DNA of 64,000 nt. Source: Balanoglossus misakiensis. Taxonomy: Eukaryota; Animalia; Hemichordata. Position numbers and translations under genes: made by a program. Below, in pieces: positions 6,573 to 57,118 of this stretch; positions within the stretch are counted from its first letter, which is position 1; each line of letters starts with the position of its first letter. Location: contig CM082598.2 of assembly GCA_040954595.2 (NCBI GenBank), forward strand, positions 8,323,097 through 8,387,096, read 5' to 3'. A model generated the notes under the pieces. That model saw only the letters and a list, made by a program, of their open reading frames with translations. It searched no databases and was not told the origin of the DNA.

Positions 6573-9290
6573 CTGATTCCAAAAAAGGCAGTCTTATTGA
6601 TCCCACCCAAGACAAAATTGCCATTTTGGCACTTTTTAACCCAAAAAGGTCATTTTTAGAAAACACTAAAAACACACTGTTTTCGTCACATTCGAAGATC
6701 TGATGACATATGATATGCCTATTCTATGTAAAATTTGGTTGATATTACGAAAAAAAGCAGTCTGACTGACCCCAAACGAGACAGAATTGCCTTTTTGACC
6801 ATTTTTTGCCCAAAAACGTCATTTTTAGACAAAACTTAAAACACACTCTTCTCTTCATATTGATTGATTTGATGATATATGGAAAGTCAATTCTATGTGT
6901 AAAATGGTGACTATAAAACATAAAGCAGTCTTTTTGACCCCAATCAATACAAAAATGCCATTTTTGGCCATATTTTTGAGGTCAAAAAAGGTCATTTTTA
7001 CAAAAAAAATTAAAAACAAACTGTTTTCTTCATATTCAGAGATCATGTGATATATGAAAAGTTTATGCTATGTAAAATAGTACTGATTCCAGAAATAGCA
7101 GCCTTATTGACCCCTACTCAAGGCAAATGTGCCATTTTTGCCACTTTTTGCCCCAAAAATGTCATTTTTAGAAAACACTCAAAACTTATATATTTTCTTC
7201 ACTTTCGGAGATCTGATAATGTATTATATACCCCCCCCCCCCTGTGTAAAATTTGGTAGGTATTCAAAAAAGTAGGTTTATTAGCGCCACTCAAGATTAA
7301 AGTGCGTTTTTTGGCAAGATTTTGCCCCAAAAAGCAAATTTTAAGAAATAAGCAAACGTTTTTCTTTATATTTGGAAATTTGATCATGTATGAAAAGTCC
7401 ATTTATTGAAAAATTGGTGTTGACTCTAGAAAAAGCAATCTTATTGATCTCAATGAAGATGAAAATACTTTTTGCCCAAAAAAGCGTCATTTTTAGAAAA
7501 TACTAAAAACATGCTATTTTTTCCCCTTTGGTGATCTAATAATAAATAAAAGTCCATTCTATCTTAAAAGTAGCGATTTTTCCAAAAAAGCACTCTTACT
7601 GACTCCACAGAGGGAAAAAATGCCATTTTGGCCACTTTGCTCAAAAAAGGTAACTGTTTGAAACTTCTTTCTATATTTTCAGAGATCTTATGATGTACGG
7701 AGAAGGTCCATTTTTGTTGAAAGGGAGCCGATTCCAAAAAAAAATTCTTTTCAGCCCTACAAAATTGTCATTTTGGCCATTTTTTGGTCAAAAAGGTCAT
7801 TTCAAGAAAAAATGAAAACAAGCTGTTTTCTTCGTATTTAAATGTTTGATTATGAATGGAAAGTCCATTTTTTGCAAAAAATATGCTGATACCAACACAA
7901 CAGTCTTATTAAGACCCCACTCAATACAAAATTGCCACTAAGCCATCTTCTAGTCAACAATTGTCTTTTTCAGAAAACAAAATAATTGGTGTTTTTTGCC
8001 TTTTGAGTTTGATGTTATATTTGCATATTTAAAATGTCATACCATATGATATCAGTTGAATTGATGATATTGAAAGGCAGAGTTGCCACAATTTGGCACA
8101 TTTAGCCTAAAATGGAACTCAACAATAAAACGAGACGATCCATGTATTCACACTGTATACTATAAGTCGGTTATACATGGTATAATTTTTTTATGTACAT
8201 CTATACCAGCTCCGGATAGATTGTTGACATTTATCCTCTTCGTTCTGAATACAAAATCAGAAATTATATTATATCATGATACCTCCGTCATTTTGATTGG
8301 AAAGGGGTGCAATCCCACGATGCTAAATACTCAATAGAGCTAAAACTGGCCCCTGAACTTGCACACAACGGGAAAATGTGGGTTTAAACCTAATAAATAT
8401 AATAAAAACTCTTAAATTCCTTGACGTTTCAATTTGGAGATGTTCTAAGTGAATATTTGGGACTTTGCCATGTGCAGTGCCTGTCTTTTTGTCGCCTGTA
8501 TCATGTTTAATGTTTGGTCCTGGGCGACGTGTTTAGATTCATCGATGCGACCTTGGTTCAATTCGTATAACTTCTTTTACTCTCGACGCTGTTTCATCAT
8601 CATTATGAGTTCAATTTGGGCTATCTCCAAATGCAAACATTTTTTTCTCTAGAAAATGTTTAAAATGATAAATTTGTCTTAAGTAGGTCTTTTTAGGCAA
8701 TAAATTGCCAAAAACGCAATTTTGACTAGAATGGGGTCAATCAGATTTTTTTTACATAGAATGGACTTTTCATACATAATCAAATCTCTGAATATGAAGA
8801 AAACAGTTTGTTTTTAGTTTTTTTTTGTACAAATGACCTTTTTTGACCTCAAAAATGTGGCCAAAAATGGCATTTTTGTATTGATTGGGGTCAAAAAGAC
8901 TGCTTTATGTTTTATAGTCACCATTTTACACATAGAATTGACTTTCCACATATCATCAAATCAATCAATATGAAGAGAAGAGTGTGTTTTAAGTTTTGTC
9001 TAAAAAAACAACGTTTTTGGGCAAAAAATGGTCAAAAAGGCAATTCTGTCTCGTTTGGGGTCAGTCAGACTGCTTTTTTCGTAATATCAACCAAATTTAC
9101 CATAGAATAGGCATATCATATGTCATCAGATCTTCGAATGTGACGAAAACAGTGTGTTTTTAGTGTTTTCTAAAAATGACCTTTTTTGGGTTAAAAAGTG
9201 CCAAAATGGCAATTTTGTCTTGGGTGGGGTCAATAAGACTGCCTTTTTTGGAATCAGCACCATTTTTTACATAGAATGGACTTCACAAAC
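6573..9290. repeat. Foldback-like structure: ~170-bp tandem units (6573-~8020) and an inverted array (~8650-9290)
   Basis: 6573-7050 is a near-perfect reverse complement of ~8760-9257; the gcagtcttattga-like motif recurs at about 6588, 6757, 6926 and 7098. Confidence 0.8.
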
Positions 9291-13096: not shown

Positions 13097-13809
13097 CTGT
13101 ATGCGTGTATTGAACGAAAATGTTAAAAAATATCTTAAGTTTACCTGTTTCAGTTGTATGTGTCAAAAAGATCACGGACGGATTGGATTGTAACTTAACT
13201 GCACTGAATAAGTCAGGATCAATCCAATACATACATGGTGGCTTATAGAAGTACAGACTGGCCCGTGCTAGGGAAGAGTCTGTCTGTCTGTCTGTCTGTT
13301 TTCTGTCTGTGTCATCGATATCATTAAACGGTGGGTGAGATTTGAACCAAATTTTGTGGACAGGTATCGATGTTGGCGGATGGTCAGAAATGAATGCATA
13401 TTGGTGGATGTGGCTTGAATTTTATTGAATTTATCAAGATCAAGTTGTTATGATTTTAGCTCGTGTATGACAGAATCCGCATACACCGAAAATTACTTTA
13501 CGAACTTCGTTTAAACTTATTTGTACATGCCAATATCACATCATTATGATGGGAAACATTCCACTGATTTTTATTAAGTTGCAAAGTTGAACTTTTCTAA
13601 TCAATGGTATATTTCCAAAACACCATCACAAACTCAGTGAAAATTAAATGTACAGGTATTTATCTCACGGTCATCTCAATGTCCCATGAAATATTTTTGG
13701 ATACCACGTTAATATAGTAAAATGTAGTTTGCACTAACTTTTGCTATTAGTAGTGTACGTCAGTAGTTACTGCACTTGCAGCTATGCTGAAATTATTTCG
13801 TAAGTGATC

Positions 13810-14188
13810 TGTAAAACATGTTATTTTCGCGAGCAATAAATTTGCGCGAAATACGCAAGAACCAAAGCACGCGAAAATAAAGACTCGCGTAAATATAGCT
13901 GTGAAAGAACAATGTGGTAAAGTAATAGAACGATAGTCAAACACACACGCAACAAAATGAAAGTGCGGGTAATTTATAAAAATTGTTGCGGTTTCATGGT
14001 TTTGCTACGCATCGTGCAATTAGTTTGAACATCGTGGTTTGTGGCCAAGAATCTTGCTACGAATGCGACAATAGTAGTTTTTCGGAGATAACGAAGCAGT
14101 ACGAAAACGCGAAAATTAATACTAGCGTAACAGTGGCCTCTCTCGATATCGCGAAAATTTCAACTCGCGAAAATAACATGTTTTACAT
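13810..14188. mobile_element. MITE with ~24-bp TIR (Tc1/mariner-like CTGTAAAA end, degenerate)
   Basis: tgtaaaacatgttattttcgcgag at 13811 and its exact reverse complement at 14164-14187; repeated cgcgaaa motifs inside. Confidence 0.65.
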
Positions 14189-15783
14189 GCATTGATAAGA
14201 TACAATTATTGAACTGTTAAAAGCTTTTTTTCTCATCATAAATTTTAACCTGGAATGTTCCCCTTCCAGAGGAATTAGCGAATATTAGCCATAGCAATTT
14301 TATCTTGAGCAAAATACAGAGATTATTGTCTTACGATCTCATTATTTTCTTGTGCAGATTAGTCAATACTGTTAGAAATTCCCCCGAGAGAATATTCATC
14401 GTGTCGGTGGGAGCTAGCTTGAACTTTATTAACCACGCAGGCTGAGGCTGTAGGGGGCTACAATTTTAGGGGTATCGAGGGAGTCAGGGGTATGAAAATG
14501 AGAATTTTTTAATATATTTACGCGTATTCACGGAGACATTTTGGCGCGCCTTCACAGCGACAAACATTTTACAGTAGACACAATCCAAGAGTAGAGCAAT
14601 GTGTAATAATGACACAAGAGTTGTATTTATAACGTGAAAAAGGCAAATAAATCTCCACAAGAATTGGCCATATTAAAGTCATTATATCAATTTGACGCTT
14701 GGTACAGGTTAGAAAATATCCTGTCTTCTTTATACAGCGAATGTTCGCTTTTATTTTCTTCCATCTCTTGATATCATTTTGGTGCTTGGCACGGGCTGAA
14801 AAATGTCTTCTCTTAGTGTTTCATAATTCTTTACTAAATAGTACACTATTTTTCTTGTTGCCATGTTCTTAAACTCGATGTGCACGCTTCGTATTAAACT
14901 CAAGTACCCCAAACAATCTACATGACAACACGTCGGCGCCTATCTCACACACTGGGAAGACATAACGATTTCAGTGTCCGATGACTTTAATGCAAACGCA
15001 TAGCTGCGGCATATCGGCCGAGCCCCAGTCTGCCCGGAGACTGAGAATCTTTCGTCGGTTATGCGTCTCCTGTATATTAAAAAATCACTCTATATCGGAA
15101 ATGCCTGTCAGAAATGTTTATTTGTAATTAGAGCATTAGGGTTTACTACTTAGTTGAAGCAGTGCGTGTTGAGAAAGAGACGTGAACAGAAAGGGGTAGG
15201 AAACTCGAGTCGAACACGGACGACGAGAGTTGTTTAGCGTGTCGAACGCGGCTCTACGAAGCTCGTAGTTACCTATATATTTCATATATTTTGCTGCCAC
15301 AAACAACAAGTTCATGCGTAGGTCATAGACCCTAGAGAAAGAAGGACGCGCAACTCCAGGTTTTTCTTGAAACGATGTTCTTTTGCATACATTATTTTCG
15401 GATAATCCCCAATTATCCAATTTGCAAATAAACTATGTATAAACTAACGCAAAGTCTCGCGTTTTGCGAGAAAAGACGAGAAAACTGCAACGTGGTTGAA
15501 CTGCAGCGATCATTTATGGAACACATCTGGACAAGTTAAACACGAATTTGGCACTTCTGAGTCTGACAGCGTCCAAAAAAAGCATCTTTTGTCTAACAGT
15601 CCCGGTATTTGACAAGGCTGTGAGCTAACCGTACCTAGGGTTTCCTGTCGTCGTCAACCATGAAAAACCAAGATGGCGGCCATAGCGCACACGTGAAAAT
15701 CCACAAAGTTTGTTTACAAATTGTTTTCGTGAAATCTGTTTCATTGTTCACGCACTGCGAAATAAAATGCCCCTAAACCACAA

Positions 15784-18137
15784 TTTTTAGCTCACGTGAA
15801 AATCACGTGAGCTTATGGTTTAGCGATGTCTGTGTGTGTGTATGTATGTGTGTGTGTGTGTGTCTGTCTGTCTGTATACCCGATATCTCAAGAACCGCTG
15901 AACCGATTTCCACCAAATTTAGTACACAGGTTCAGATATCATATGGCAAGAACTGAAAAGGTTTTGGTGGGTGTGGCTTTGATATTAATGAAGTTATTTA
16001 AGTTTTAATTTTTCTATTACATGGTTGTCTATGTGAGCTTTCGTTAATGCCGCATATATGACCAGTGGAAACGATAGTTTGAGGAGATCGACTGTTTGAG
16101 GGCGCTGTGAAATGAGACATTCCTGGCGATATTGCCGTTGTTCTGTCCATGCTCAGACGCTGTACCCGTCGTTACGAATAACTTCCCTACGTGAATCCAC
16201 AAGGAAGCTAACGTTGTTTAGTTGCTTCATAGAGCGTAAATTGTTAATCTACAGGACCGTCAGACGAATACTCTTTTCAAATGAAGTTTGAAACTACTTA
16301 CGAGTAAGTTAGTGGAGACAATATGGCGGATAGTTGGCGTGCAGCCGAATCCGCGTTATGACTATGACGTGACCCATTCATCAAGACAAACCGTAAATGA
16401 TTCACGCATATTGTGGTCCTCACGCATTCAATCTCAAAATGTCACCAGGCTTTCTATTTGTCTATTGTTCAGAGAAAAATAACGTGGCGGTTGATCACAC
16501 TCAACAGTAAAATCCGTTTTGTGAATTTATAGACAGTCTGTTATCGCCAATACTATATAGCGATTGCTAGATGGCCTACCCAATATGTGATCGAGCGAGA
16601 ATGATAACATTGAATGTCTGTTCAGATCTCATTCCGTACGTCATACGTCAACATTTCGATTTCGATTTAATCCATTCATAAAGAATTTAGAGAAAGTCGT
16701 CTTGAATTGTGACCCCGATTATCAATTTTACGATGATTTTTTGGCGACGGAATACACGAGACGCCATTGCATAACTACGTCAGCTGGACTTCCAAGGTTA
16801 CCATTTTGTGTGTATGGAATCTTATCACAGAGACTACGTACTTTGACAATATGCCATGCTATATCAATGACGCCCCAGAAAATTTGTCGAAGAATGAATT
16901 TGTCTTCTCATGGTGGTGCAATATATTTTAATGTCTATTTTGAGGTTGATTTTGGTTTTTGGCTAACATGTATATCAATGTCAGCTTATAGCATAAGTTG
17001 GTGTCCGTCGTCTATGTATGTCTGTATGTGTGCCTCATACAGAATTATGTATTTTGCGAATGGATCAGTTTCGTCTAAATGTATTGATGTATGTATGTGT
17101 ATGTCCATCAACATCAAAAACTTGAAACTACTGATATTTAGTGTGTACATAGAAATTGTTTTTGCGAAAAAATGCATACTGGTATTAACTGGAAAAATGT
17201 TCAAATAGTCAAAATTGAAAAACTTAATAACAGCGGATCAGATTCAGTTAAAAATTGGCGTGCATTGGTGTGCAAGTACTATGGGAAGACCTCGTATGAT
17301 TTTGTTCAGGTGGAGTCAGTATCTGGCGTTTGCTATTTTTCATGAATTTTTGGGGGAATTTTCTGCAGTTTTGTTAAACAAATTTCTTCTCTGAAATTAC
17401 ATGTCCAATTGATGGGAAACTTGATATGGAGGTTCATAGGGCTTACCTGAATCACATTTGTGCAAACGGTGGTGAAATTTGCAAAAATGCATTTTTGGGC
17501 AATATTTCCTGTTTTTGTCAAAAAATCAAATCCCGTGAAACTGTAAGTGCAATTGTTTTGATACTTTGTATTTGGGTTTCTAGGGGTGATCTCAGTCAGA
17601 TATGATCAAATTGTAAAGAAATGTGCATAATTGTATTTTTTGGGAATTCTGCAGGGTTTGGCAAAATAGTCTTCAGTAAAACCACAAGTCCAATTGATTG
17701 GAAACTTTGAATGGGAATTCATATATGTGATATCAGTCAGATTTGTCTGAGTTACCTGTTGTTTGCCAAAATGTCTTCCTTATTGAAACTTGTTAAAGAG
17801 GTTCTTAGGCATGAACAGAAATCAGATTTGTTGAAATCTGGTGAAATATTCATACTTTTTGGTATATTTCTTGCCATTTTTGATCAACGAGTTTTAGAAT
17901 TCCATAGACTTATCTTTTTATGCAGTTCAGGATGGGGTACATGACTCATAACCCCTTACAAAAATTGACAAGGCAACAATTCCACAAACATGTTTACATT
18001 TCACAATGGTGCAACACACAACCCTTACACCATATACACTATAAACCAAATTGGTTTAACACTGGTTTTTCTAATCTTGTTATTCTGTCAACTTATCACA
18101 GTACTGCACGTGAGCATATTCAGTTAATATCTGGTTG
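15784..18137 (+). mobile_element. Helentron/DINE-like non-autonomous element
   Basis: T-run then hairpin agctcacgtga-aaa-tcacgtgagct (15789-15813), a (GT/GTCT) microsatellite, and a 3' sub-terminal repeat cacgtgagc at 18107 followed by a small stem-loop. Confidence 0.55.
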
Positions 18138-18168
18138 TTTCAATGCTTCACGCAAACATAACATTATT

Positions 18169-19228
18169 GAGGTATGTAAGGGTACTTCGAAGTGCATACT
18201 CCGAGTTCAAAGACCGAGTCGGACTTCAAAGTCCGAGTACTCGGACTTGTACACTCCGAGTAGTGGCTGTACTCGGACTTGTATACACCGAGTTGCACTC
18301 GGTGCTCGGACTTGCGTACTCCGAGTTACAGTTGAATAAAAAGCCAGCTTTTAAAAGCACAAATAATATTCGATATTGCGATAAAAATGTGGGAATACTT
18401 TATACTGAGCTTCCAGTCAAATCGATCGAGGGGTTTTGAAAGTATCGCAACATTCAACTTTCTTTCAATCTCTCGACATGCTGTATTGTATCATGTACAA
18501 AATGCACGCTCCGCGTAATTTCCGTTTGGTTAAATACTGACCTTTCCTATCTACTAGATCATATCCAAGTCTGATTTTACACTGAATTTTATAAGGAGCT
18601 CATTGGTTTGTCAATTTTAGAAGCTAAGTGAAAAGTACGCTAACGAACACGAAATGCGCCATACTGCGATGCGACAATCGTCATTTTTGAATAACCTGAC
18701 CTTTGACGTCATCGGTTGAAATATGGTCGAGGTCGCACTGCGCTCGATAGCGCGATGAATCTGACTACTCGCTTCCGCATTGTTCCGTGATCGGTATACT
18801 TGCCCTACGTTTTTATGTCTAAATATAAAACGTAATATTTTTTTTATTTTGAAAAACGGTTGTATGAGTGCAGTTACATGGTATGCTTTAGTGAACGCCC
18901 AGGAGTGACTGTGTGAATCAGAATGTTGTTGTGGATGTAAAGCCCATGCCTATTCAAAACTGGCGCAACAAGACATCATGGACACCGATCGTGGTAGTAA
19001 GCAATAAATGACTTCTTGAGTAATGAAAACAGGATTTTTGCCGTCCGTTGTCTTTCATAGGCAGTGTGTAACTCGGAGTACGCAAGTCCGAGCACCGAGT
19101 GCAACTCGGTGTATACAAGTCCGAGTACAGCCACTACTCGGAGTGTACAAGTCCGAGTACTCGGACTTTGAAGTCCGACTCGGTCTTTGAACTCGGAGTA
19201 TGCACTTTGAAGTACTCCTACATACCTG
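18169..19228. mobile_element. hAT-like MITE with ~160-bp TIRs
   Basis: 18169-18330 is nearly the reverse complement of 19067-19228; ends (g/c)AGGTATGTA...TACATACCTG; 8-bp TSD acattatt / gcattatt with one mismatch. Confidence 0.8.
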
Positions 19229-19659
19229 GCATTATTACGAAAAGTGTCAGCATTACCAAGAAGTATGAGTGCCCAGTCGGACATGCAAAAAACATGGGTG
19301 ATTTGTTTACAATTTTTAAATGAAGCTTGTGGCACTAGAAATGACCGTTCAACCGACAGACGAACACCAAACCATAATAAATAGCACAGAAAACGTTATG
19401 CTTTTTTAATTTTAGAAAAAAACGCAGTGGCTGCTGAAATATAGGAGTGCCAGTTTTGGTTACTGTCGCGCATCACAGAGTTGCGTTTATTTTTTTGGTG
19501 ATATGTTAATGATATGCTAATGACATTGACGCATGCCAAAGTGGAGATTCACACATGCCACAGTCCTAGGTGTTAATTATATGCAAAAGAACATCATCAT
19601 ACCTATAATCCTCAAACCCTTTGATCTTTGCCGAAGTTGCATGTCCTTCTTTCTCTAGG

Positions 19660-20175
19660 GTCTATGTGTAGGTCGAGAAAGTTCTAAAGCGGCCGGATGA
19701 TCGCTGCAAGGTTAGCGGTGGCCTCGCACGCCCAAATTTGCCACAACACTATCAGTCCACACAGCAGTGCGTTTCAAACTCTTCCGCTGTATTTTATTTC
19801 AACAACACAAATTCAAAATACAACACGGCAGTTTGGTATGTCGTCTCTATCCTACACTGCTAATTCTCATCTCAATCTCTAAAAAACGTTCAACAGACAG
19901 GGTACACTGCAACCCGCGGAACTAGCAATTTACGTCTCTGCTTCAGAGGAATCTACCGACCTGAAGTGGGGGAACCCAGTCCGTTCAAGCGTAAATGTCC
20001 TGATCAGAAGGTAACTCTCTCAACACGCACTACTTCAAGTGCGGAATTGAGATGGGGGCGCCTCTTTGTCTACTAAATTGTGACGTTGTTACAATGTTAG
20101 AGATGACGTGTCGCTGGAATCAAAGAAATACGGTGTTTCTATTTTGGCGTTTGTTGCAGCTATTTTGAATTCTGT
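19660..20175 (+). repeat. Dispersed repeat A (direct copy at ~25320-25930; inverted fragments at ~15150-15330 and ~20720-20975)
   Basis: Shared strings such as aggaatctaccgacctgaagtggg, gggggcgcctcttt and ctactaaattgtgacgttgttacaat. Confidence 0.8.
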
Positions 20176-20974
20176 GGTAAAATATCACACATGATATTAT
20201 ACCGGTATATTGATGGTGTAAATCACGCTATTTTATTGGTCGAGACACGACACGTGACTGTGATATAATCGTCATATACCACAGTCATATATCACGCAAA
20301 ACTCATAGTCAAAGAAATGCCTTTTTAAAATGTCGTGCGTATATGTCGTGAACTGGCCAAAATCTCGTGGTATACCATGGCTGGGGGTGTTTTATTGCTT
20401 AAATATCACACATCACACCTGCGCACGTTAAATACGAACACGAGGGCTAAACACATGTATTGCCTATTGCTGGTTCTCACTGTAACGCGTTCAACCAAGC
20501 AGTAACAGAAACAAACAAAAAAACAGCGACAAAAAAATACGTGTGAACATATTTATTTGCAGAGTGTAAACTCAGATCCTGCAATATTCTAGGAAATAAC
20601 CAGTAGTGAGGACAAGGCTTCGAAATGGCCCGCTCATTCTGGGAGAAAGTCATATGAACAGGTAGCTACAATAATTGTAACCTTGGTGGTGGGCTGGTGT
20701 ATCGCTGTCGGCCAGCCTGATCGCTAACGCAGCTAAATAGCTGCAACAAACGCCAAACTGGCAACACCGTATTTCTCTCATGCCAGCCAGCAACGTCACA
20801 ATTTAGTAGATAAAGAGGCGCCCCCCCCCCCATCCCAATTGCGCAGTTGAAGTAGTGCGTGTTGAGAGAGACGTGTCGACTCGAAGACAGACGACGAGAG
20901 TTGTTTAGCGTGTCGAACGCTGCTCTACGAAGCTCGCAGTTACCTTCTGACTGGGGCATTTACGCAAGAACGAA

Positions 20975-22790
20975 CTGTCTAATGGTTCTTGAGAAACAGT
21001 TCTTGAAAGAATTTTTTTCAAAGATTTTTGTCATATTTCGAAAACTTATATGGCCACCAAAGGAATTTTAAGAGCTGCGCGCGCGTGCCAGGGGCTTTTT
21101 GATGACTTCACGTTTAAATTTGTAATGCAATTTCTATCTAGTATACCTGACACTCTGTGTTTCTTTTCTCCCGAATATGTATTCTTCAAGAGGTGTCAAA
21201 TGACATTATTAGATCGTTAAATTGCTTTTATCAATAATAAACTAAAATGAAATGCCTGTAACAATTGTTCAATTCCTATCTCTGTCACGAACGTTTTTGC
21301 TTCTTTTGTGTCAGCGAATTAAATGTCATTTTCTTGCATTGTTAATGTGTGGCAGGTAAATAGAAAAGGCCGTAGCTTTTGTCTGAGTTACAGGCTCTTC
21401 AGATAATCGGGCAACCAGACTTCTGTGCCTCTAAGCATACATTTTGAAGCGACTTAACAGTTTTCTCGGGCAGACAGGCGTATGCTCTTAAATGGCTGGT
21501 CAATACATTGAAATTGTATAAACCCGTCCATCTAATCTGTTTCCTACGTACTATTAATGTCAAATAATTGCCATGCGGTATGCGTCACGTCTGTTTTGAT
21601 ACAAAAGCTTAAACTGTAGGCCTGGTGTGAAAGCGTTGAATTACATACTGTACGCATATATAAAGATTGAAATGCATCGGATAAAGGTCAAAGGTTAGGG
21701 AAAAATTGTCCAAAAAATAGGCAATTTTTTAAGCAATTCTCGTCCAATATTCAACACACATCAGTCGTCTGCAGTAAACATCCCCCCCCCCCCCGAAAAA
21801 GTAGTCATTGAGCAGAAGCAAAGCATTTCCCAACTGTCTGGAATGACCACTAACTTATTAAACACGTCATCCATATGATACAGTAGGGAAAGTTTTAACC
21901 GCAAATGCCATCGGCTACTATATGAATTTTACGAGCTACTTGCGAATGGCGGCGCGGCGTGTGATACATGTACGGTGTCTTAATTAATAAATTGCAATTT
22001 GCAGTATAACGACAGATTGCAAGAGGGATTGTGTATGATATGTTGTCTACATTTATAATGCAATTTAACAGATAGCTGATACTCTTATTTTTCTCCCGAT
22101 ACACATTCTCATTTTTCCTTGGCCGGGGCCAGAAGTTACGAAATGACATTAACTCGCATTATTAATATTTAACTAAAGTGAATTGAATTGAATGCAGCAA
22201 ATTAATTGTTTAATATCAAGATCTATCACAAGTATTTTCTTCTTTCTTGTCATTTTATTGTGTGACAGGTAAACTAATGAGGCCGCAGCTTGTGTCTTAG
22301 TCTTAGACAAGTATGGCTTCTGTACTTCTATAGTTCCAGATTGTGAAGTGTCCATTGCTATTTTCCTAGTCTGGCCCTGCCCAATCCCAGCGACTGGATG
22401 CAGAGTAGCTCCAGCGGCGTGAGAAAGAGACAGGGAACCAGACTAGTCTGGTCGTCCACTGCCCCATTCCCATCACTAGCTGTGTTACCCCTAACGGTGT
22501 TTATTTTGTAAGAGTACATAAGAGTATTTCAAGATTCCTTATGCCCTGTGAGAGCATATGCAAACTGGAGGGTCTGACCACGTGATCAAAAACAAGATGG
22601 ATGCCTCCAATGTCCGTACGCCAATGAGCAGTCCGGGTAATATCTCAGGTAGGATTGACCAATCGGCAATCGCCATTGCGTTACGTCATGAATAATTAAT
22701 CACCAAAGTTTTTCACCATTTGTGCGAAGCTTCTTCGTTTATTTTCGGTGATTTTGACCCTTTACTTTGACGCATTAGGCAGTTTGGCTA
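20975..22790 (+). repeat. ~1.8-kb direct repeat B, copy 1
   Basis: Nearly identical to 27430-29243, from gaactgtctaatggttcttgagaaacag to ggcagtttggctatgta. Confidence 0.95.
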
Positions 22791-24110
22791 TGTAAACAAC
22801 ATCCACGTGGTCTGTCGATGATAAAATGGCGACTAACATGAGCTGTACGTGAATAAGACTTACGATTTTTTCAACTTTGCCTGTCGTGTATGACACCCAA
22901 AAATGAGATTTTACGAGAAGGATTTTAGAGTTTGAGATTTAACGCGTAATGTTCTCTATTCAACTGCGACTTATCAGAATTTTTTCGATATCAATGCATA
23001 AAATTGTTTTAGTTGTCAATGGTGCATAGTAATACTCAACTGTTTTGTTTATGTGGCATGTGCAGTCGGCCAGCTTCGACACTTGCGGGAGTTTTAGTTC
23101 TGAGGAGTTCTGTCACCCAGTTTCCACTTCTCTTATGCTTAATCTTTCTCTATATGGACTTACTGGTAATACTTTTCGTGTGTCTGCTTGCTGTGAGCGA
23201 GTTTCTGGTACAGAGCTAAGTCTCGAATTCGGGGCTGAGCTGAAGGTCCAACGAGTTACGCGCTCACACTCGCTTCCTTAACTCCACACATGCTATATGA
23301 AGCCCATAGACGTGGGCAAGTCTACCTGACCTCATACCTTTCCTTGCTGGACAAGATAGGAGACGGTCAGGCGGTAGCAAGCGTTCCCCAAAGTAGGGTC
23401 CCTGTTAGAGTCGTACCGGAAACAGAAAAGAAGAAGAAGAAAACAAGGCTGACAGACAACAAAACGTATTCAGTTTATCGCAAGCGTTTTAGCCATAAGG
23501 CAGGCCCTACTTAGTTGGAGGAAATAAATAACAAAGCAACAGCCATTTTTCTTCACGTTCCATTGCGTGATATGGCGAAACTTTGCGAGATCAACATGTG
23601 CGCGCCCTGCGAATGCATGGCCATCGGTAAAAAACGTCACTGAATATAGCCGTTTCTGATATTTTTGCGAGTTCGTACTCGAGAAATATGTTTTTTTATC
23701 GCATAAACTGTAATATTTTGGAGTTTATATGGATCTTGCCGCGTGATTTGGAAGACATTTGGATCATGACATGTAAACAATGGCGAGTGAACAGCATCGA
23801 ATCCCGTTTTTGTGAACTGTAATTTACAGCTAAGATAACATCGAAAATCGAATTATATTTTAATCCAACCGATTTTTATGTGTTAGTAGTCGAATATTTT
23901 GTGTTTTGAGTGTGATGATTTTGTCAGGGTGTTTTTTCCTTGCTTTGTGTTTTTTATTTTTGAACGGCATGTGTTGTGTGGTTCGATGCTTCGATGACCC
24001 CTTAAGCTGACCGTGCCCATGGTTACTGTATTGTTTACGTGTACACTGGCGCCAAAGTTGATCGAACTACGTTGTCGTCTGCACATTTGTCGGGTGCTGC
24101 AGCCAGTACG

Positions 24111-24935
24111 ATGACCGGGCGGAAATCTCTCGGGTTCCACAATAACATTTTGCTGAATAGATGTCGGATTTGCAGCCGTAAATTTGCAGAGAAGCCATTT
24201 CTGTGCACAAATTTTGGAGATACTTTAGGTGAATGTTTTGGAATAGATATTTCAACGGATGACCCTGGCATTCACCCAACCCATTTCTGTAGTAACTGCA
24301 AGCGGCTTATTACATCTATTACAAAGGCAAAAGAAACAGGTAAACAGTACAATCATGGGGTACAGTTAACTGGTTGGAAAAAAACATCCGAGAATTGGTG
24401 AATGCAGTGTGTGTACTCTTTGCAAAAGTGGACAAAAGCGGAAAGCAGCAAAAAACCGGGGAAGACCTCCAATGACACAAACCAAAAAACTTGATGGAGA
24501 CCAAGAACATATACAATCAGAAAACATTATCCTTGCTGTACAGCAGAAAGCTGGCAAGAAGCTAAGGTCTGCATTAAACTTGTCAAGGTCACGCTTTTCC
24601 TCTGCGAGTCAAGATTTTGAATGTCCAGTTTGCCGAGATGTTGTTGACGAGCCAGTTCCACTTCTTTGTAATGGGCCCCATGTTTTTTGTTCTACTTGTT
24701 TACGTAAGTGGTTTGGAGAATGAATCACATGCCCCATCTGTCGCCTACGTATTATGCCAGGTGATATTGTCAGTGTCCCATTAGTATTGTCAAATATGCT
24801 GTCGTCTCTAAATATTGTGTGTGACTTTGCAAAGGCTGGTTGTTCAGAAGTTGTGCCACTACAAGACCTTTGCTCTCACACAAATCAATGTGCCTTCAAA
24901 ACTATCGCCAAGGAACATGATTATGCCTCACCATG
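24111..24935 (+). pseudogene. RAG1-like/Chapaev-type N-terminal module (Zn-binding NTD + C3HC4 RING + Zn finger), disrupted, no DDE core
   Basis: FHNNILLNRCRICS...FGIDISTDDPGIHPTHFCSNC, then after a poly-A frameshift near 24380 WKKHPRIGECSVC; basic RGRP linker; RING CPVC..CNGPHVFCSTC..CPIC with in-frame TGA at 24721; CDFAKAGCSEVV..L.SH...C. Confidence 0.82.
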
Positions 24936-26512
24936 CCCCTTCAACATGCATGTCAACACAGTGTGGGACGTCAATTCACCGGCCGGCTGCACCGCTCCCA
25001 ACATGACCAGCTCCACGCCACTTTGAGCTGCACCGCAGTCGGATATCCCACCCAGCTGCCAGACAGCATATGAAGGTGTCTGAGGCATTTTCTAGGCAAA
25101 GTGTACACGTTTAAAACATTGGGGTTTTCGGAATGGTAAAAAGCGGAACAAGAACATGGATTTATACTAATCATGAACGCCAAACAAACACGTTGAAAAA
25201 GCCAGATCTGAAAAAAAACCATGTGGCGTCCGCCGCTGGGCGCGATGACGCACCGACGTTATTTTTTAAACAATGTAACCTGTCACACTGAGTTCATATT
25301 TTTTGCTGTCACAAACAAGTTCATGCGTAGGTCGAGAAAGTTCTCAAGCGGCCGGGTGATTCACTGCAAGGTTAGCGGCGGCCTCGCACGCCCGAATTTG
25401 CCACAAAACTTATCAGTCCAAACAGCAATGCGGTTCAAACTCTTCCGTCGTATTTATTTCAACACAAACTATAATACAACACGGCTGTTTCTTACGTCGT
25501 CTCTAACCTACACTGTTAATTCTCATCTCAATCGTCTCTTCTGCAAAACGCCGATTCTCTAAATGAAAGTTCATCAGACGGGATACACCCGCGGCACTAG
25601 CAACGGCAAAATTAACGTCTCTGCTTCACAGGAATCTACCGACCTGAAGTGGGAGGAACCCAGTCCGTTCTTGCGTAAATGCCCCGGTCATAAGGTAACT
25701 ACGAGCTTCGAAGAGCAGCGTTCGACACGCTAAACAACTTTCGTCGTCTGTCTTCGAGTCGACACGTCTCTCTCAACACACACTACTTCAACTGCGCAAT
25801 TGGGATGGGGGCGCCTCTTTATCTACTAAATTGTGACGTTGTTACAATTTTAGAGATGACGTGTCGCTGGCATGAAAGAAATACGGTGTTGCCAGTTTGG
25901 CGTTCGTTGATGGTATTTAGAATTCTGTAGTAAACAGGGCTGTGCATATAAATAATATATATAGAACTATGGCGGTGAAGTTGGTTTTGGAAACATCTCC
26001 ACACTCACGGGATGCTTTTCACATTCAAACTGCCGACGAGAAAATTGGATGGGGAAGTCTATTCAATCGAACGTGGAATGAATCGTTTAGCTGAATGACA
26101 TCAATAGAATGATTTCCAGCCCATACAAAGCACCGAAATGATATCATGACAGTAAGTTAATTGATCTACTATTTTGCTGAAATAAAGCAATTTGAACATC
26201 GATCCATTGTCATTGTTCAATTTTCTATTTTAAACAAAATGTCCGCTTTAAACGGAAACACGACCAGTGACAGAGACGCTCTACCTGTCAGTAGAACGTC
26301 TAATCCAATTAAAAACTGCGACTTTTACAAAGCGACTTCAAGACAGTTCGATGAAACAGTTGTTGACAATCATTACAGTTCGGTTATCGGAATTTAATCA
26401 CAAATGCAGTCGAACAACCGCAAACAAATAAAACCAAAATGGTCTATGGTAATCTTAAGTAATAAAATTAATACCAAGGCACTACTTGCAAAACCACAAA
26501 GTTTACTCTTAC

Positions 26513-26576
26513 CTGTTCCTTCGGTTATGCGCGTACAGTAGAGCAATAACAGCGAAATTAGGACTAGTTGAAACAT
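26513..26576 (-). CDS. Probable first coding (signal peptide) exon of the SRCR-pentraxin gene
   Basis: MFQLVLISLLLLYCTRITEGT has a hydrophobic core; ACAG|GTAAG donor; 64 nt gives phase 1, matching the SRCR1 exon start; same strand as the SRCR exons. Confidence 0.72.
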
Positions 26577-27429
26577 CTCAGTATTTCATCCTGTTTTACA
26601 CGCATAAGCACAATTTAAACTGTGGAGCATACAGGGTTGTGACAAACAAGTACATCAGTCAGTTGCTATAGGCACACCCATGCGCTTTTATTGGTGGTGT
26701 TAATTCACGTCACTCATTAGTACGCCAGCCAATCGCATACCGTCGGATAATTTGCACAATCACATTGCCTGTATCATCTGATGTTATGCTTTTAAGCATT
26801 TGTACAAGACTAGTCCCTTTTCTGAAAGATGACCACAATTGGGATTATTTTGTGATTGTATACCATGAAATATCGTATAAATTAATGGACTTCAATGAAA
26901 CTGCATTGACATTTTTGCAAAATGCTTGTTATTTTAGTAAGAATAACCACAGTCTATGGGATGTGGTTTGGCCAATGGTTCTGTGCCCGCGAATTGATGT
27001 GGGGAATCCAATATTAGTCAGTTTTCACCACAGATTTTATATTCCCGAGCCAGGGTGTTCAAGTATCTCAATTTTCTGACTTATGAAACGTTGAATAAAT
27101 CAGGAACGTAATTAACAGAAATATTTGGTAAGTTGATATTTAATGAATAGTGCCGTGTTCCACAAAATACAAGGAACACATATACTGTATATACTGATGA
27201 TATATGCGAATTTTGGTCGAATGTCATCCAGAAGTTGGGTTAAATTTTGGGCCCGAGCTGATCAATCGTCGACAAAACCAACCCCACTGGTCACTTTTTA
27301 GCATGGAATTTAATATGCACAAGATAAAAGAAATAAAGAGAAGCCTATTATGCAGATATGGTTAATCTAAGAGAACCACTATGCAAATGTCGCCGAACAT
27401 ATCCATAAGTAGTCATCCAACCATTCCGA

Positions 27430-29243
27430 ACTGTCTAATGGTTCTTGAGAAACAGTTCTTGAAAGAAGTGTTTTCAAAGATTTTTGTCATATTTCGAAAA
27501 ATTATATGGCCACCACAGGAATTTTAAGAGTTGCGCGCGCGTGCCAGAGGCTTTTTGATGACTTCACGTTAAAATTTGTAATGCAATTTCTATCTAGTAT
27601 ACCTGACACTTTGTGTTTCTTTTCTCCCGAATATGTATTCTTCAAGAGGTGTCAAATGACATTATTAGATCGTTAAATTGCTTTTATCAATAATAAACTA
27701 TATTGAAATGCCTGTAACAATTGTTCAATTCCTATCTCTGTCACGAACGTTTTTGCTTCTTTTGTGTCAGCGAATTAAATGTCATTTTCTTGCATTGTTA
27801 ATGTGTGGCAGGTAAATAGAAAAGGCCGTAGCTTTTGTCTGAGTTACAGGCTCTTCAGATAATCGGGCAACCAGACTTCTGTGCCTCTAAGCATACATTT
27901 TGAAGCGACTTAACAGTTTTCTCGGGCAGACAGGCGTATGCTCTTAAATGGCTGGTCAATACATTGAAATTGTATAAACCCGTCCATCTAATCTGTTTCC
28001 TACGTACTATTAATGTCAAATAATTGCCATGCGGTATGCGTCACGTCTGTTTTGATACAAAAGCTTAAACTGTAGGCCTGGTGTGAAAGCGTTGAATTAC
28101 ATACTGTACGCATATATAAAGATTGAAATGCATCGAATAAAGGTCAAAGGTTAGGGAAAAATTGTCCTAAAATTGGCTATTTTTAAACCAATTCCCGTCA
28201 ATATTCAACACACATCATTCGTCTGCAGTAAACATCCCCCCCCCCCTCCCGAAAAAAGTAGTCATAGAGCAGAAGCAAAGCATTTCCCAACTGTCTGGAA
28301 TGACCAAAAACTTATTAAACACGTCATCCATATGATAAAGTAGGGAAAGTTTTAACCGCAAATGCCATCGGCTACTATATGAATTTTACGAACTACTTGC
28401 GAATGGCGGCGCGGCGTGTGATACATGTACGGTGTCTAAATTAATAAATTGAAATTTGAGCAGTATAACGACTGATTGCAAGAGGCATTGTGTATGATAT
28501 GTTGTCTACATTTATAATGCAATTTAACAGATAGCTGATACTCTTATTTTTCTCCCGATACACATTCTCATTTTTCCTTTGCCGGGGCCAGAAGTTACGA
28601 AATGACATTAACTCGCATTATTAATATTTAACTAAAGTGAATTGAATTGAATGCAGCAAATTAATTGTTTAATCTCAAGATCTATCACAAGATTTTATTG
28701 TGTGACACGTAAATTAATGAGGCCGCAGCTTGTTTCTTAGTCTTAGACAAGTATGGCTTCTGTACTTCTATAGTTCCAGATTGTGAAGTGTCCATTGCTA
28801 TTTTCCTAGTCTGGCCCTGCCCAATCCCAGCGACTGGATGCAGAGTAGCTCCAGCGGCGTGAGAAAGAGACAGGGAACCAGACTAGTCTGGTCGTCCACT
28901 GCCCCATTCCCATCACTAGCTGCGTTACCCCTAACGGTGTGTAACTTGTAAGAGTACATAAGAGTTTTTCAAGATTCCTTATCCCCTGTGAGAGCATATG
29001 CAAACTGGAGGGTCTGACCACGTGATCAAAAACCAGATGGATGCCTCCAATGTCCATACGCCAATGAGCAGTCCGGGTAATATCTCAGGGTGGCATAGTA
29101 GGATTAACCAATCGGCAATCGCCATTGCGTTACGTCATGAATAATTAATCACCAAAGTTTTTCACCATTTGTGCGAAGCTTCTTCGGTTATTTTCGGTGA
29201 TTTTGACCCTTTACTTTGACGCATTAGGCAGTTTGGCTATGTA
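27430..29243 (+). repeat. ~1.8-kb direct repeat B, copy 2
   Basis: Nearly identical to 20975-22790 with small indels. Confidence 0.95.
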
Positions 29244-29945: not shown

Positions 29946-31362
29946 TTAGTCGTTACTTATGATGGTCATAAATACATCTTAGTACTTACTCATTACTTTA
30001 CTAAGTTTCCATTAGCATATCCATTACGTAATGCACGAGCTAGGACAGTTGCTAAGCTCTTGTTTGATGAAGTAATTGCTACTTATGGAAGCCCCAGAGT
30101 TTTGCTGAGTTGATCAGGGATCGACTTTTTTATCCCAGGTAGTTCATGAAACTTGCAAATATTTCAACATCCAGAGGAAAGTTTCTACCCCTTATCGTCC
30201 ACAGACCAATGGCCTTACAGAGCGTTTCAATGGTTGCTTAGTCGACATGCTGTCCATGTTTGTTGATAGTAAACAGAAAGATTGGGATCGGTACCTAAGT
30301 TCAGTGCTTTTCGCTTATAGAGTTAGTCCTCAAGAGTCCAGTGGGTTCAGCCCTTATTATCTGTTATATGGTCGGCATCTCACATTGCCCATGGATGTTG
30401 AATTCCAGCCAGTTGAGGGTAGGACAAGAAATATAGATACACACCTTAAAGGTCCCATGCCATGCCCTATACGACCCCGCGTAAAATCACTATTTGGGTC
30501 TTGAAGTTAACGTATGTTACTATCTTGCAATGCGTTTTGCCCCTTGTGCTTAGATAACAAGCAAGTAAAAGTGGCGGGTGGGCGTGTACCCCTAACCCAA
30601 CTCAGTCGATTTTTTTCGGCTTTTCGAAGTTAAGCCGAAGACTTATCTTGATGTGGACAAATAGTCTTTCACACCTTTGTAAATCCTCTGCCTGCAATGT
30701 GAGGCAAGGGCTTCCTTTGCTTTGAACACTGTTTATATAGCTTGTCTTTGTCTGTGGACGTAATTACTCATGGACCGCTAATTACACTTTACTGTAAACA
30801 GAATGGTACACTACGACGTAGTGTACTTGTTTGTCCATATGCAAATACCTTCGCCTGGCTCGAGTGCGAAGTGGCTCCCTGATCACAGGCATGAAAAAAG
30901 GGGGCAAATTCCGGCATTCGCGCACATTTTTCGGAACCGACACAATAGGCAATGTATAGACAGGTACCCTAGGTGAGCTTTTGACGTGGAAAAATGAAAA
31001 CTTTCCAAAGCATGACATGGGACCTTTAAACATTTAGCTGCTAAGAGGGAGATAGCTCATAAAATCGCCAAAGAGAATACAGATCGATATCAACAGAATA
31101 TGAAGGACCGTTATGATCAAAATATCCAACGGTCATAAAATCTTAAAGTGGGGGATCCTGTATATTTATACACACCTGCTGTTAAACCAGCAGTTAATAA
31201 GAAATTCGTACATAAGTGGACAGGTCCTTACATTATTTCTGTGAAGGTGGGTCCTGTTAATTACAAGTTAAGTTTCATAAATAGCACCAGGAATTATCGT
31301 AAAGTCATACATGTGAATAGACTAAAAAGAGCTTATTTGCACCACTCCGACTTTGACTCACC
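29945..31362 (+). pseudogene. Gypsy/Ty3 integrase fragment, disrupted and inverted relative to RT
   Basis: YGSPRVLLS-DQG, STPYRPQTNGLTERFN, DWDRYL..VLFAYR...SGFSPY, GD.VYL...KWTGPY (GPY/F motif), VIHVNRLK. Confidence 0.88.
30450..31025. mobile_element. TTAA-target MITE (Kolobok-like, AG...CT ends) inserted in the integrase
   Basis: TTAA at 30446-30449 and 31026-31029; 16-bp TIR AGGTCCCATG(C/T)CATGC; removing it restores the integrase frame (IDTHLKHLAAKREIAH). Confidence 0.9.
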
Positions 31363-31419
31363 CTCATCTGTGAGTCGTGTGAAGAAAACGGTGTCCCAGA
31401 ACCCACAAATTATGAAAAT

Positions 31420-32760
31420 AATACCCTAGAATTGGTGCTTGACACAGAACATGTTTTAATTTCTTGAATGCATGTTCGCATCGATCATCCCATTCAAATT
31501 TCGTGTCCTTTCCCAACAATTTATGTAGAGGCCTAGCAATGATCGAGCAATTCTTTATAAACTTTCTAAAATAATTGGCCAACCCAAAAATGATTTCAAC
31601 TGTGTGACAGTATGAGGACGGGGATATTCTTTAACAGCTGTTACTCTTGTCAGCCGCAATTCCATCCTTACTGATAATATGACCCAAAAATTTAACACTC
31701 TTTCTCATAAATTGACATTTGCTGGGCTTTAATTTCAATCCAGCTTGACGTAACCTGGTTAGGACAGTATCAATGTGTTGAAGATGCTCCTCAAAAGAGC
31801 TGCTAAATATAATAATATCATCGATATAACATAACACATATTGCCACATAATATTGCGTAACACGTGTTGCATAGTACGCTGAAAACAACTGTGACTATT
31901 TCGCAACCCCTGGGCAAGTCTCCTGTATTGATATAAACCTTGATGTGTGACAAAAGCTGTTTTTGGTGTACTCTCTTCATCTAATTCCAATTGAAAAAAA
32001 TCCTGACAGTAAGTCAAGCGTCGAAAAATACTGAGGCTTATTCTTGCCTAACATTTCAAGAGATTCGTCCGTTCTGGGTAAGGGAAATGAATCAGGCACT
32101 GTAATATTATTTAAATGACGGAAATCTGTGCAAAAACGCCACGAACCATCAGGCTTTTTGACTAAAATTACTGGACTAGCAAACGGTGAAGTAGACGACT
32201 CGATAATATTTATTTCTAACAGCTGATCAACTTGTCGCTCAAGTTCACGTCTTTTCTCAGGCGTTACTCGGTAAGGTGGGCGACGGAACGGGGCAGCACC
32301 CTCTTGTAATCGTATTCTATGTTTGATTACATCACAGTTGCCTAAACGACCACTAGACTCAACAAAAGCTTCCATATTGTGCAGTAAAACATCTCTAAGC
32401 TGTTTACGCTGTGCCTTAGTTATCTCTAATTCATTAAGTTTCAATTGACCCATCAAATAATCCGTCTCTTTCTGTGTATAGGGCCCTTGAGGTGAGACAC
32501 AATTAATGGCATTATTATCGAGTTGGATTATTTGACTATTACAGGGCAAGGGCGAAAACATTCCAACAACACTGTTTTTCTTAATTTTGGCCACTGTATC
32601 CAAAGTGTTTACAACTCGCATGGGAAGAATATTCTTATTCCAATAGGCCAACCCCTTAGCTACCAAAATACCTTGGGTTAATTGTGTTCGTTTATCAGAA
32701 ATATCAGTAAAATATTTATACGGCACTTTCACTGGAATAACCATTTCACTTCCAGGTGAT
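31420..32760 (-). pseudogene. Gypsy/Ty3 reverse transcriptase, frameshifted
   Basis: PFRRPPYR, SPFASPVILVKKPDGSWRFCTDFR.LN, STLDL.SG, KTAFVT, GL.NS, CYIDD, LKPSKC, NYFRKFI, APIL. Confidence 0.92.
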
Positions 32761-33699
32761 CCACGGAGACACGTACCTGATCCACATTCATTTATTATCC
32801 AGAATTATTATAGTACATCAAATACGCCCAGTAAAGTACACGAGGAAGGGAACGAGCTCAGTAGCCTGAGGTACTCCCATCTCCCGTTAGATTATTCTCT
32901 TACAACTATAATTACTTTTCTCAAGGCGTGGTTAATCATGTAAAATATCACACATACAATGTGTTACAATTTCATTGGGCATCAATTCAACTCTACACGT
33001 AACAATTTACATAAAGCTTTATATAACAAAGTCAGTTCGATGATGATTGACAACCAGAGCAGTCTGTTAAACACCAGCTCTCCCTATCTACTTCAAATGC
33101 ATAAAATCAAATACTATCAAACATTGACATTCCCGAGCTCTGGATTAATTGACCCTTAAAATCATATTTGACCTTTATACAGATCGTAACAGCGTATTTG
33201 TTCGAAAAAAACTACGGGTTGTGAATTTTGACCACTGCATCGAGCCCCACTGAACAGAAGTTCTTGATTTTGGTGCCATATAGATTTGTTGATTGATTGA
33301 GAATGCAATTCTGACAAATATACCTTTTGTGAAAATTTTGAGGAAAGCCTTGTACATTTATTTTTCGAATGCGACGGTATTATGTCATTTTGGAAGAATG
33401 TAAAGTTGCAATGGCAGACAAAGTGTAACATTGTCATTGAGCTTTTCCCTTTGTGGCGTCCTATTGGTATGAAAGAGAATTCCAAAAGAAACGATGCAAA
33501 AATGATTGTTTGACCTTGAATAACTTTATATTACAAACAAAGAAATGTATTTCTATGTCTAAATCCAAGTCACGGCTCTCATCTTTTTTTTTGATAAAGC
33601 TTAGAGTAAAATAAGTGGACATGTCTTTTGGTTGGTAGTTGTCTTGCCGTTATGTCCTTTTTTTCATAATTTTGCTCACGGTTGTATTCATTGAATGGC

Positions 33700-37379: not shown

Positions 37380-38808
37380 TTAGCATGACAGCACTGGCCT
37401 CTGAAAATTCACAATAGAGCAACAGACAACCCATATCTGTTTTATAGATCCGTACAAAGTTAGTGGAATCACGTGATCAAATATGTGCCACGCCTTCACC
37501 CTGCCTATAGCTCGTTCAATGTGTATGCGAACACTTGCAATTCTCTGAGTTTCAAAAACATCATTACAGCTCATTTGCTTTTGACCAGGTCGACGTTTTG
37601 AAGGAATTTTTAGTGTCACCCTTCGTTTGATAAGTAGATCATCCAAATCAAACCCTTTGTCTGCCATTAAACTATCGTTTGGCTCCAGCAAGTCGAGAAG
37701 ACCACATTGCTCAGTGATGACTCTATCTGATGCTGAGCCCCCAAATAACGGACTGATAAAAGTCACGGCAACAGCAGGATCTATTGCAACAAGGCCTTTC
37801 AAAGTATCATGGGTTTTGTACTCACACCACAGTTCCAACTGTCTCCCATAGTCACTGGGTGTTTCGCATTTAATTTCTGTGCAGTCGATGATGCACCTGG
37901 TATCAGGATAACTGGATTTGAAAATCTCAGGCATATGCTCATTGACTTTTTGTCTCGATGGCCAAATGGGCAAACTTACAAATTGTAAATACATAAAATT
38001 AATCCAAGTAATACAAATGTCAGATTCAACGGAAATTGAAACAGAAAAGCACTTGGCTAAATCTCGCTCAAATAAGCCCAATCTCAAACGATAAAGTAAT
38101 AAAAAAAATCATCGATAGGCTGCATCGATCGTGGTCTTCCAGTTTTTCTGGCATCGCTGTCCGGACTCGGAGTGCATGAACGTTCTCTCGCCCTTCTGTG
38201 TGCATACTACCAGTAATGCAAATGTTCGGCGCACGGTTTTAAATATTCGTAGCACCCGACTAAAGTTCTGTAATCCGGAAAGCCGGTATAAATGTCATCG
38301 TCACTACACGAAAAACGGTCCAGTCCAAACTTATAAATGTCTAGTTGCTGTCTAGTTGTAGATTTTCTTTCTTCAACTGTTGATTTTCTTTCTCGAGTCG
38401 TTGAACTTTGTCGGCAAGAGTAAGACATTCCTCCGGAGTAAGGGGTCCTAACACCGCTGAACTGGACTGGGGCGAAATGTTAGCTGATGTCGTTGTGACG
38501 GGCAGACGTACGCTATCATCAACGAGACAGAGACAGGGTAGCTGTGGATTTTGTCCAGGGAAAGATGGACGGTAAAATTCCTAGCTTTAGATATCGCTTA
38601 CCGCCAATCCGATCTTGAAGTCTGGTGTCTTGAAATGTGCAGAACAGAGACACGTATTTGGTGTTACGGCGAAATCGTCTGCTCGCCGCATCAGCGCGAT
38701 CCACACTTTCCGACGCTTTTCGTCAGTGGGAAATGTATGCCACGACAGTTCTGGACACTTATTGGCTTGGTTATTACACAGGGCTGCAGCACAATACCAC
38801 GTTCCCAT
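37380..38808 (-). pseudogene. THAP-DDE_Tnp_4 (Harbinger/ISL2EU) transposase, frameshifted
   Basis: THAP: YCAAALC...WHTFP....RKVW...LCSAHF. HTH region: YTGFP. Catalytic motifs: IIDCTE, MADKGF, IASVRIHIERAIGRVK. Confidence 0.9.
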
Positions 38809-50346: not shown

Positions 50347-50451
50347 CTTGATTTACCGTTACCAAGGAAAATGACCCGAAGCGTGACCCCAGAATAGATA
50401 TGCGCGCTCCGTGAAGCATTAGACAAAACAGGGGCGCCCTGGGCCGCAGTG

Positions 50452-55515: not shown

Positions 55516-55891
55516 TAACATGCATAACACTCACCTTTTTGGCAGCCGGGGGAGCGACATAAAGTTTCCTCTTTCGATTTGTCAGGAAACACTCTTGTGT
55601 AGCAGATTCCACTAACAAACGCTTAGCTCTGAACTCCATCGCGATATCGGACAGCAAGACAGTGAATTGAAGTCTCGTGAGGAGTTAAGTTATACGTGAT
55701 ACAGACGCGATACTTTCATTGATTATGGGAAATGTTGTGTGGTGTTGATTGTTACATGTACACTCTCAATTAGCATTTAAACGCAAGCTGAGAGTCTCAA
55801 AAGCGATCTCCAATACGGTCTCAATTGCAGTTTACATTGTATCTGAGATTCTCCAATGCAGTCTCAAATGTGGTCTCAGATAGCATCTACT

Positions 55892-55927
55892 CACAGGGAA
55901 CTTAGTAATTTTGTTATTGTTATTACT

Positions 55928-55963
<36 letters not shown>

Positions 55964-57043: not shown

Positions 57044-57079
<36 letters not shown>

Positions 57080-57118
57080 AATAATAATAACAATAACAAA
57101 ATTACTAAGTTCCCTGTG
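55892..57118. mobile_element. Foldback element with ~510-bp near-perfect TIRs and 7-bp TSD (P/Galileo-like)
   Basis: CACAGGGAAC...GTTCCCTGTG; arms 55892-~56400 and ~56606-57118; ATCTACT duplicated at 55885-55891 and 57119-57125. Confidence 0.88.

Follow-up and report, generated by a model that had tools for sequence, protein, structure and literature searches.

A probable 5'-end fragment of a RING-bearing Chapaev transposon, with a RAG1-like zinc-binding module, in the predicted first intron of an acorn worm SRCR-pentraxin gene

A 64,000-nucleotide stretch of the Balanoglossus misakiensis genome (hereafter, the window) contains a module whose zinc-binding motifs follow one another in the order of the RAG1 non-core region. 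From which kind of element did this module come: a RAG-like (RAGL) transposon, a Chapaev transposon, or a core-less unit in its own right? The module was analyzed together with its junctions, its host gene, and its relatives.

RESULTS

A RAG1-like module with two lesions in its reading frame

In a six-frame translation, an ATG at 24111 opens the module, and frame +1 then reads H-x7-CRIC, HPTHFCxxC, and W. A run of seven A residues (24372 to 24378) shifts the frame of the open reading frame (ORF), and frame +2 continues with H-x5-C-x2-C, RGRP, a C3HC4 RING, a C2HC finger, and EHDY. Read through in this way, the plus strand encodes a predicted N-terminal zinc domain of the NZD or type I Chapa kind with type I ligands (24111 to 24425; His + CxxC + CxxC + W..H-x5-CxxC), in which the frameshift lies; a basic RGRP linker and a helical spacer (24426 to 24612), assigned from the sequence; the RING, with C-x3-H spacing (24613 to 24750) and a premature TGA in frame +2 (24721 to 24723); and, from sequence comparison, the C2HC zinc finger followed by EHDY, an instance of [D/E]HxY (24800 to 24925). 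The EHDY motif presumably resembles an HCF-1-binding motif. The coding sequence of the element reaches 17 codons beyond EHDY, to 24958, so that the end of the resemblance, which a preliminary description had set at EHDY, was placed too early. The type I ligand pattern of the NZD was compared with section 9 of 10.64898/2026.01.24.700457.

Profile matches were obtained in Pfam for RAG1_imp_bd (E = 4.3e-6; 27.0 bits, with a cut-off of 23.3) and for RING (E = 3.6e-8), and a match to Sina_ZnF fell under its cut-off. The RAG1 NZD (21WB; E = 2.4e-5) was the top PDB match of the first 96 aa. Judged from these sequence matches, the module exceeds chance resemblance, and the RAG1-type order of NZD, RING, and zinc finger with one frameshift and one TGA, as first described, was recovered with every motif in its place. 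An Rfam search of 22700 to 26700 gave no match.

The RING side aligned to residues 203 to 374 of mouse RAG1 with 30 bits, and the generic RING ligases RNF4, SIAH1, and TRAF6 outscored mouse RAG1 when the RING half alone was compared with the PDB. An ordinary RING ligase of the TRAF, SINA, or PDZRN type was considered and rejected: the NZD is present, the best matches are NZD-bearing proteins rather than RING proteins without an NZD, and the RING-side piece scored 175, 152, 123, 107, and 103 bits against its five nearest relatives versus 37.5 bits against a TRAF-like protein.

The window copy ends at a junction with an unrelated repeat

Public contigs came from three runs (X1, X2, and X3) on a single sample, from which the window itself may derive. 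Contigs of X1 and X2 match the plus strand from 23481 to 24958 and diverge at both ends, which delimits a truncated member of what is most likely a RING-bearing family of Chapaev-type transposons; it consists of a 5' noncoding region (23481 to 24110) and the start of the transposase gene. The ends had been expected within about 23540 to 25270; the element-derived DNA instead starts further left and stops at 24958, and 24960 to 25934 belongs to a different repeat. In each run a single contig (1,393 nt in X1 and 1,662 nt in X2) covers the ORF as far as 24958; the two differ from the window at 20 and 22 letters in this part (identity of about 97.6%). Both contigs lack the extra A and have a sense codon at the TGA site, and the ORF is therefore open in them. 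They extend 491 and 703 nt past 24958, where they are unlike the window; the first 30 letters of this continuation matched no conserved motif, and a possible splice donor lies among its first letters.

The unrelated, high-copy repeat at 24960 to 25934 is itself left-truncated and is joined directly to the interrupted transposase gene. In X1, summed contig depth rises from 958 before 24960 to 19,000 to 40,000 after it, loose contig ends lie before 24960 and 24977, and partial copies of the repeat occur in the same intron at 15152 to 15274, 19664 to 20181, and 20733 to 20977. Since other copies of the repeat extend to the left of 24960 and the element contigs continue past 24958, both sequences were cut at the junction. 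The open frame in contigs that run on where the window switches to the repeat indicates a decayed, junction-cut copy. In the preliminary description, the feature was a module without a catalytic core and a deletion derivative of a RAGL or Chapaev element; the missing core and the truncated state hold for the window copy, but the module does not stand alone, and the derivative arose at a junction with a repeat and not by an internal deletion that kept both ends.

At the left end, element contigs in X1 and X2 reach 32 nt beyond 23481. This extension does not occur in the window and shows no terminus or terminal inverted repeat (TIR), and flank contigs leave the window sequence at 23478. Two explanations are conceivable: loss of the 5' tip from the window copy, or an origin of these contigs from other insertion sites. 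No inverted repeat pair framing 23481 to 24958 and no target-site duplication (TSD) was found, both ends appearing truncated; a 14-nt left-end motif had no inverted partner beyond chance. Chapaev transposons proper have a 4-bp TSD. Beyond the flank, the alternative contigs continue with sequence that had no exact match in the window, only two matches with two or three mismatches (one of them at a microsatellite edge), and an empty site and TSD could therefore not be defined. A perfect CACAGTG heptamer lies across the truncation junction (24957 to 24963). It was considered as a recombination signal sequence (RSS) or TIR and rejected: other copies of the repeat differ there, no nonamer accompanies it, and five such heptamers occur in the 64 kb. 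It is probably incidental.

Summed contig depth, which is not a copy number, was 958 and 328 over the ORF and 60 to 176 over the flank, a several-fold excess that suggests a few copies of the element. Minor variants in X2 resemble the window sequence. Contigs of X3 do not cover the module, which is no proof of absence. Between the window ORF and the contig, 4 of 20 differences were synonymous versus 28% expected (P = 0.62; low power, polarity unknown), and at one of these differences an invariant Cys is missing from the contig. At this low power, the differences are compatible with neutral drift and give no sign of selection.

The fragment lies in the predicted intron 1 of a gene with SRCR and pentraxin domains

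The host gene occupies 50 to 26576 on the minus strand, antisense to the element, and extends past the start of the window; it encodes four SRCR domains, each split between two exons, and behind them a pentraxin/LamG domain. No membrane anchor was seen in the part of the gene within the window. A hydrophobic 21-codon exon with the donor GTAAGA (26513 to 26576, minus strand), the best of three candidates scanned and alone in looking like a clean signal peptide, would be the leader exon, and the next exon, which is an SRCR exon, begins at 13096 (minus strand) with matching phase 1. The predicted intron 1 between them (13097 to 26512) measures 13.4 kb and is rich in repeats, and it contains the fragment, in agreement with the antisense position between the leader exon and the first receptor exon proposed earlier. 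Given what SRCR and pentraxin proteins do, an immune-receptor role of the gene is plausible. The insertion had also been loosely likened to the proposed one of the RAG transposon into a receptor gene. This likeness is not supported, as the fragment is a scrap without TIRs among other repeats, and it is superficial because the insertion is intronic and in a non-Ig gene. In a passage on sea urchin Ecp2, a RAGL unit is described inside a host intron. Separately, a 1.8-kb direct duplication (96% identity; 20971 to 22794 and 27427 to 29243) flanks the host leader exon and the fragment.

The closest relatives continue into Chapaev-type sequence

The NZD piece was searched with phmmer against 1.84 billion representatives; 264 reached E ≤ 0.001, and the best 150 of the 264 were examined. 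Among the matches listed, the top match was a 147-aa fragment (P0002; 77% identity), and the longer top matches were Ptychodera flava proteins. Proteins of less than 300 aa made up 125 of the 150 listed matches and were not assignable to a superfamily. The KTxG region was reached in 14 of the 150, and 5 of these 14 were members of the relatives' profile or cluster-mates of its members.

When the module, with its frame repaired, was aligned to 161 stored proteins, the nearest P. flava relatives showed 35 to 43% identity over 270 to 274 aa: 43% over query positions 1 to 274 for the P0003 cluster, 40% for P0162, and 35 to 36% for P0005, P0050, and P0155. The RING identity was 36/69 to both P0003 and P0162. 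These relatives have in common W-x2-H-x-R-x3-C-x2-C, [D/E]HxY after the finger, and the C-x3-H spacing of the RING (all but P0005); the last feature is shared by the module and 10 stored proteins, all of the same clade. Behind the module, the relatives carry KTxG, to which the longer annotations add GGDKG, GDY, GLSGA, and GEQGxE. A match to DUF1280 was found in 10 of the 13 aligned relatives and a match to any RAG1-core family in none of the 13; with the core region of P0155 as the query, nine proteins matched, all nine with DUF1280. According to PMC3985635, DUF1280 is the Chapaev transposase family. The nearest relatives thus possess the DUF1280-type DDE core that is absent from the window copy.

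In a tree of 20 modules, with four near-duplicate rows left out and no RAG1 or RAG1L row, the module fell into an eight-row clade (support, 96/94) with seven hemichordate proteins, three of them having a DUF1280 core. The clade members, from P. flava and Glandiceps talaboti, are XP_070568023.1, XP_070546860.1, XP_070571009.1, XP_070533759.1, P0162, P0163, and P0164, the five nearest being 35 to 43% identical to the module. Unlike the window copy, they run on into the KTxG region, a helical region, and, in complete annotations, the DUF1280 region. The scored sets contained no invertebrate RAG1L. Taken together, the sequence comparisons resolve the choice between RAGL and Chapaev, with high confidence, in favor of Chapaev.

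Several relatives have annotations that stop at common points: P0003, P0005, and P0050 of P. flava, together with P0022, P0063, P0068, and P0138, end just before the first catalytic Asp or just after TGGQ. P0003, for example, has KTGGQP and no RAG core and is annotated as ending immediately ahead of the first catalytic Asp. These end points are probably exon boundaries, and core-less isoforms acting as repressors are a possibility.

Word-based protein searches, an insensitive method, gave no match for the NZD piece and only one, TRAF-like, for the RING piece; metagenome scans for the module found nothing. The literature matches listed, with Repbase outside their scope, included no paper on hemichordate Chapaevs. 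In P0142, P0097, P0049, and P0008, NZD-like domains either are joined to DUF3504/QRICH1 (amphioxus) or form tandem repeats that lack a RING, architectures that indicate shuffling of the NZD-like domain beyond RAG1L and Chapaev.

Comparison with RING-bearing Chapaevs, RAG1, and core-less sequences

A Chapa domain followed by a RING is described in two Chapaev subgroups in PMC4411706. In RING-bearing Chapaevs whose Chapa domain is of type I (Chapaev-1/2_BF, -1/2_NV, and -4/6/7_HM; PMC4411706 and 10.64898/2026.01.24.700457), a Chapa/NZD, a basic G(G/R)RP linker, a RING, and a zinc finger follow one another as they do in the module. These Chapaevs also share its His + His + 2Cys ZFb ligands, and the closest relatives of the module likewise have the DUF1280 core. 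The window copy differs from them in having no core, TIR, or TSD, and its clade differs in the C-x3-H RING, the W-x2-H-x-R-x3-C-x2-C pattern, and the [D/E]HxY behind the finger, none of which was seen in the published BF, NV, and HM rows. For Chapaev3, TIRs beginning with CAC and a TWA TSD are given in PMC3014272.

The order of NZD, basic linker, RING, and zinc finger is equally that of the RAG1 and RAG1L-A non-core region. It is nevertheless improbable that the fragment is the 5' part of a RAGL transposon resembling family A or of a chimera between the module and a RAG1-type core. An NZD (C1 to C3) with a RING and zinc finger, used as a criterion of RAGL transposons, is present in the module but is not diagnostic, because it is common to Chapaev. 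In the rows given in PMC7204232, the NZD of PflRAG1L-A was identical to the module at 21/62 ungapped positions, compared with 23/62 for P0003 (both by eye); these close scores fit the report, in section 9 of 10.64898/2026.01.24.700457, that RAG1L NZDs resemble type I Chapa domains. In the RING, by eye from the same published alignment, PflRAG1L-A reached 18/69, half the score of P0003, and the RING-side piece scored far lower against mouse RAG1 (30 bits) than against its five nearest relatives (103 to 175 bits). The HPTHFC motif resembles vertebrate RAG1, the RING and zinc finger are kept in P. flava RAG1L-A and in some echinoderm RAG1L-A proteins according to section 10 of 10.1101/2023.08.20.553239, and two relatives are named "RAG1-like" by NCBI. 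Against this, the linker, the C-x3-H RING, the finger, and [D/E]HxY are all as in the DUF1280-bearing clade, and one of the "RAG1-like" proteins is a cluster-mate of P0003. Furthermore, P0155 and P0003 match mouse RAG1 over the non-core region only, the nearest full-length relatives have no RAG1 core (NBD and DEDE tetrad), and RAG-core motifs were found in 0 of the 150 matches listed. No NBD, RAG core, or RSS-like TIR was seen with the module, and inspection of the window's ORFs of at least 110 aa, by eye rather than by profile, revealed no RAG2L. A RAG2L in convergent orientation, heptamer TIRs, and a 5-bp TSD were likewise not seen in the window ORFs and repeats, the 3' part of the element being lost. 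A motif search of the supplement of the RAGL-A paper gave no match to the family of the module.

Less probable still is a core-less origin, in which the module would belong to a nonautonomous family resembling N-RAG-TP or to a stand-alone gene for an NZD-RING-zinc finger protein, which would act as an E3 ligase or repress transposition. The frame of the family is open across the whole module, a possible splice donor is among the first letters past 24958, and three P. flava annotations stop immediately ahead of the catalytic domain. PMC1131882 reports RAG1 N-terminal-like sequences that lack a core in invertebrates, and Aplysia N-RAG-TP (PMC8355894) similarly shows no visible RAG core. In the module, in contrast to these precedents, the absence of a core is explained by the truncation of one copy: two lesions interrupt the window copy, which also stops short at the repeat junction, the contigs run on for at least 491 to 703 nt, and the relatives go on into DNA-binding and catalytic domains.

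DISCUSSION

Proposed history of the fragment

The feature at 23481 to 24958 is most likely a frameshifted, stop-interrupted 1.5-kb 5'-end fragment of a RING-bearing Chapaev DNA transposon and probably has no function; it is likely to be ordinary genomic debris. The parent family is probably multicopy with an open reading frame. A member of this presumably young, low-copy family would have inserted antisense into intron 1 by DDE cut-and-paste, after which a deletion or rearrangement would have removed the DNA-binding and catalytic exons together with the left arm of the neighboring repeat. A second deletion perhaps removed the 5' tip, and neutral mutation would have added the frameshift and the stop. 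By analogy with RAG1, the NZD, RING, and zinc finger of an intact parent may form a regulatory, dimerizing, or E3-ligase head on a transposase of about 900 to 1,100 aa.

The locus itself, a defunct transposon remnant in an intron full of repeats, is of minor importance. It is of some modest use in pointing to a probably young RING-bearing Chapaev family with an open frame, which bears on whether the RAG1 non-core region was inherited with the core or acquired from a Chapaev-like donor (PMC4411706; 10.64898/2026.01.24.700457). The feature is real and, most likely, adds another RING-bearing Chapaev-type element to those known. A bolder reading has a slim chance of being correct: the parent would be a still-mobile, RING-bearing element of hemichordate type whose NZD, RING, and zinc finger have the RAG1/RAG1L-A non-core region as their nearest extant sister, the element being either the Chapaev donor lineage of that region or a chimera with a RAG core. 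If so, open-frame copies would permit a direct test of the roles of the NZD and RING in transposition. In practice, acorn worm database names such as "RAG1-like" can denote Chapaev transposases.

Other elements in the window

An ORF of 599 aa at 46671 to 48470 (plus strand), with a decayed upstream part at about 45790 to 46700, shows a RAG1/Transib/Chapaev-like DDE order (GADG, FDQK, EPLH, and EGRE). It had no Pfam or PDB match; its nearest Atlas neighbors are unnamed clusters, which come largely from cnidarians wherever a phylum is recorded, and clusters with DUF1280 and RAG1_RNase_H rank next. That this ORF, with its RAG/Transib-like core, and the module are separated halves of one element is highly improbable, for although they lie on the same strand 22 kb apart and its motif order and look-alikes suit a missing core, it is not matched by the profile made from relatives of the module, hhalign gave a probability of 4.5% at the last Glu motif only, and it has its own decayed coiled-coil N-terminal region. 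By its sequence features it is a separate element, possibly of an unnamed family.

Long, near-perfect inverted-repeat elements of a miniature inverted-repeat (MITE) or foldback-like kind are present at 18170 to 19227 and 55891 to 57119 (161 bp at 98% and 515 bp at 98%, respectively). A RecQ-type helicase fragment (Helicase_C and RecQ_Zn_bind) and cysteine-rich ORFs without Pfam matches occur at 43271 to 44384 (plus strand) and 49732 to 52885 (minus strand), a combination that we take to recall AcademH and KDZ-type transposons. In addition, a non-LTR reverse transcriptase, Gypsy-like reverse transcriptase and integrase pieces (by motifs), and a Harbinger-type transposase (DDE_Tnp_4) were observed at 5011 to 6723, 30109 to 32804, and 37380 to 38108.
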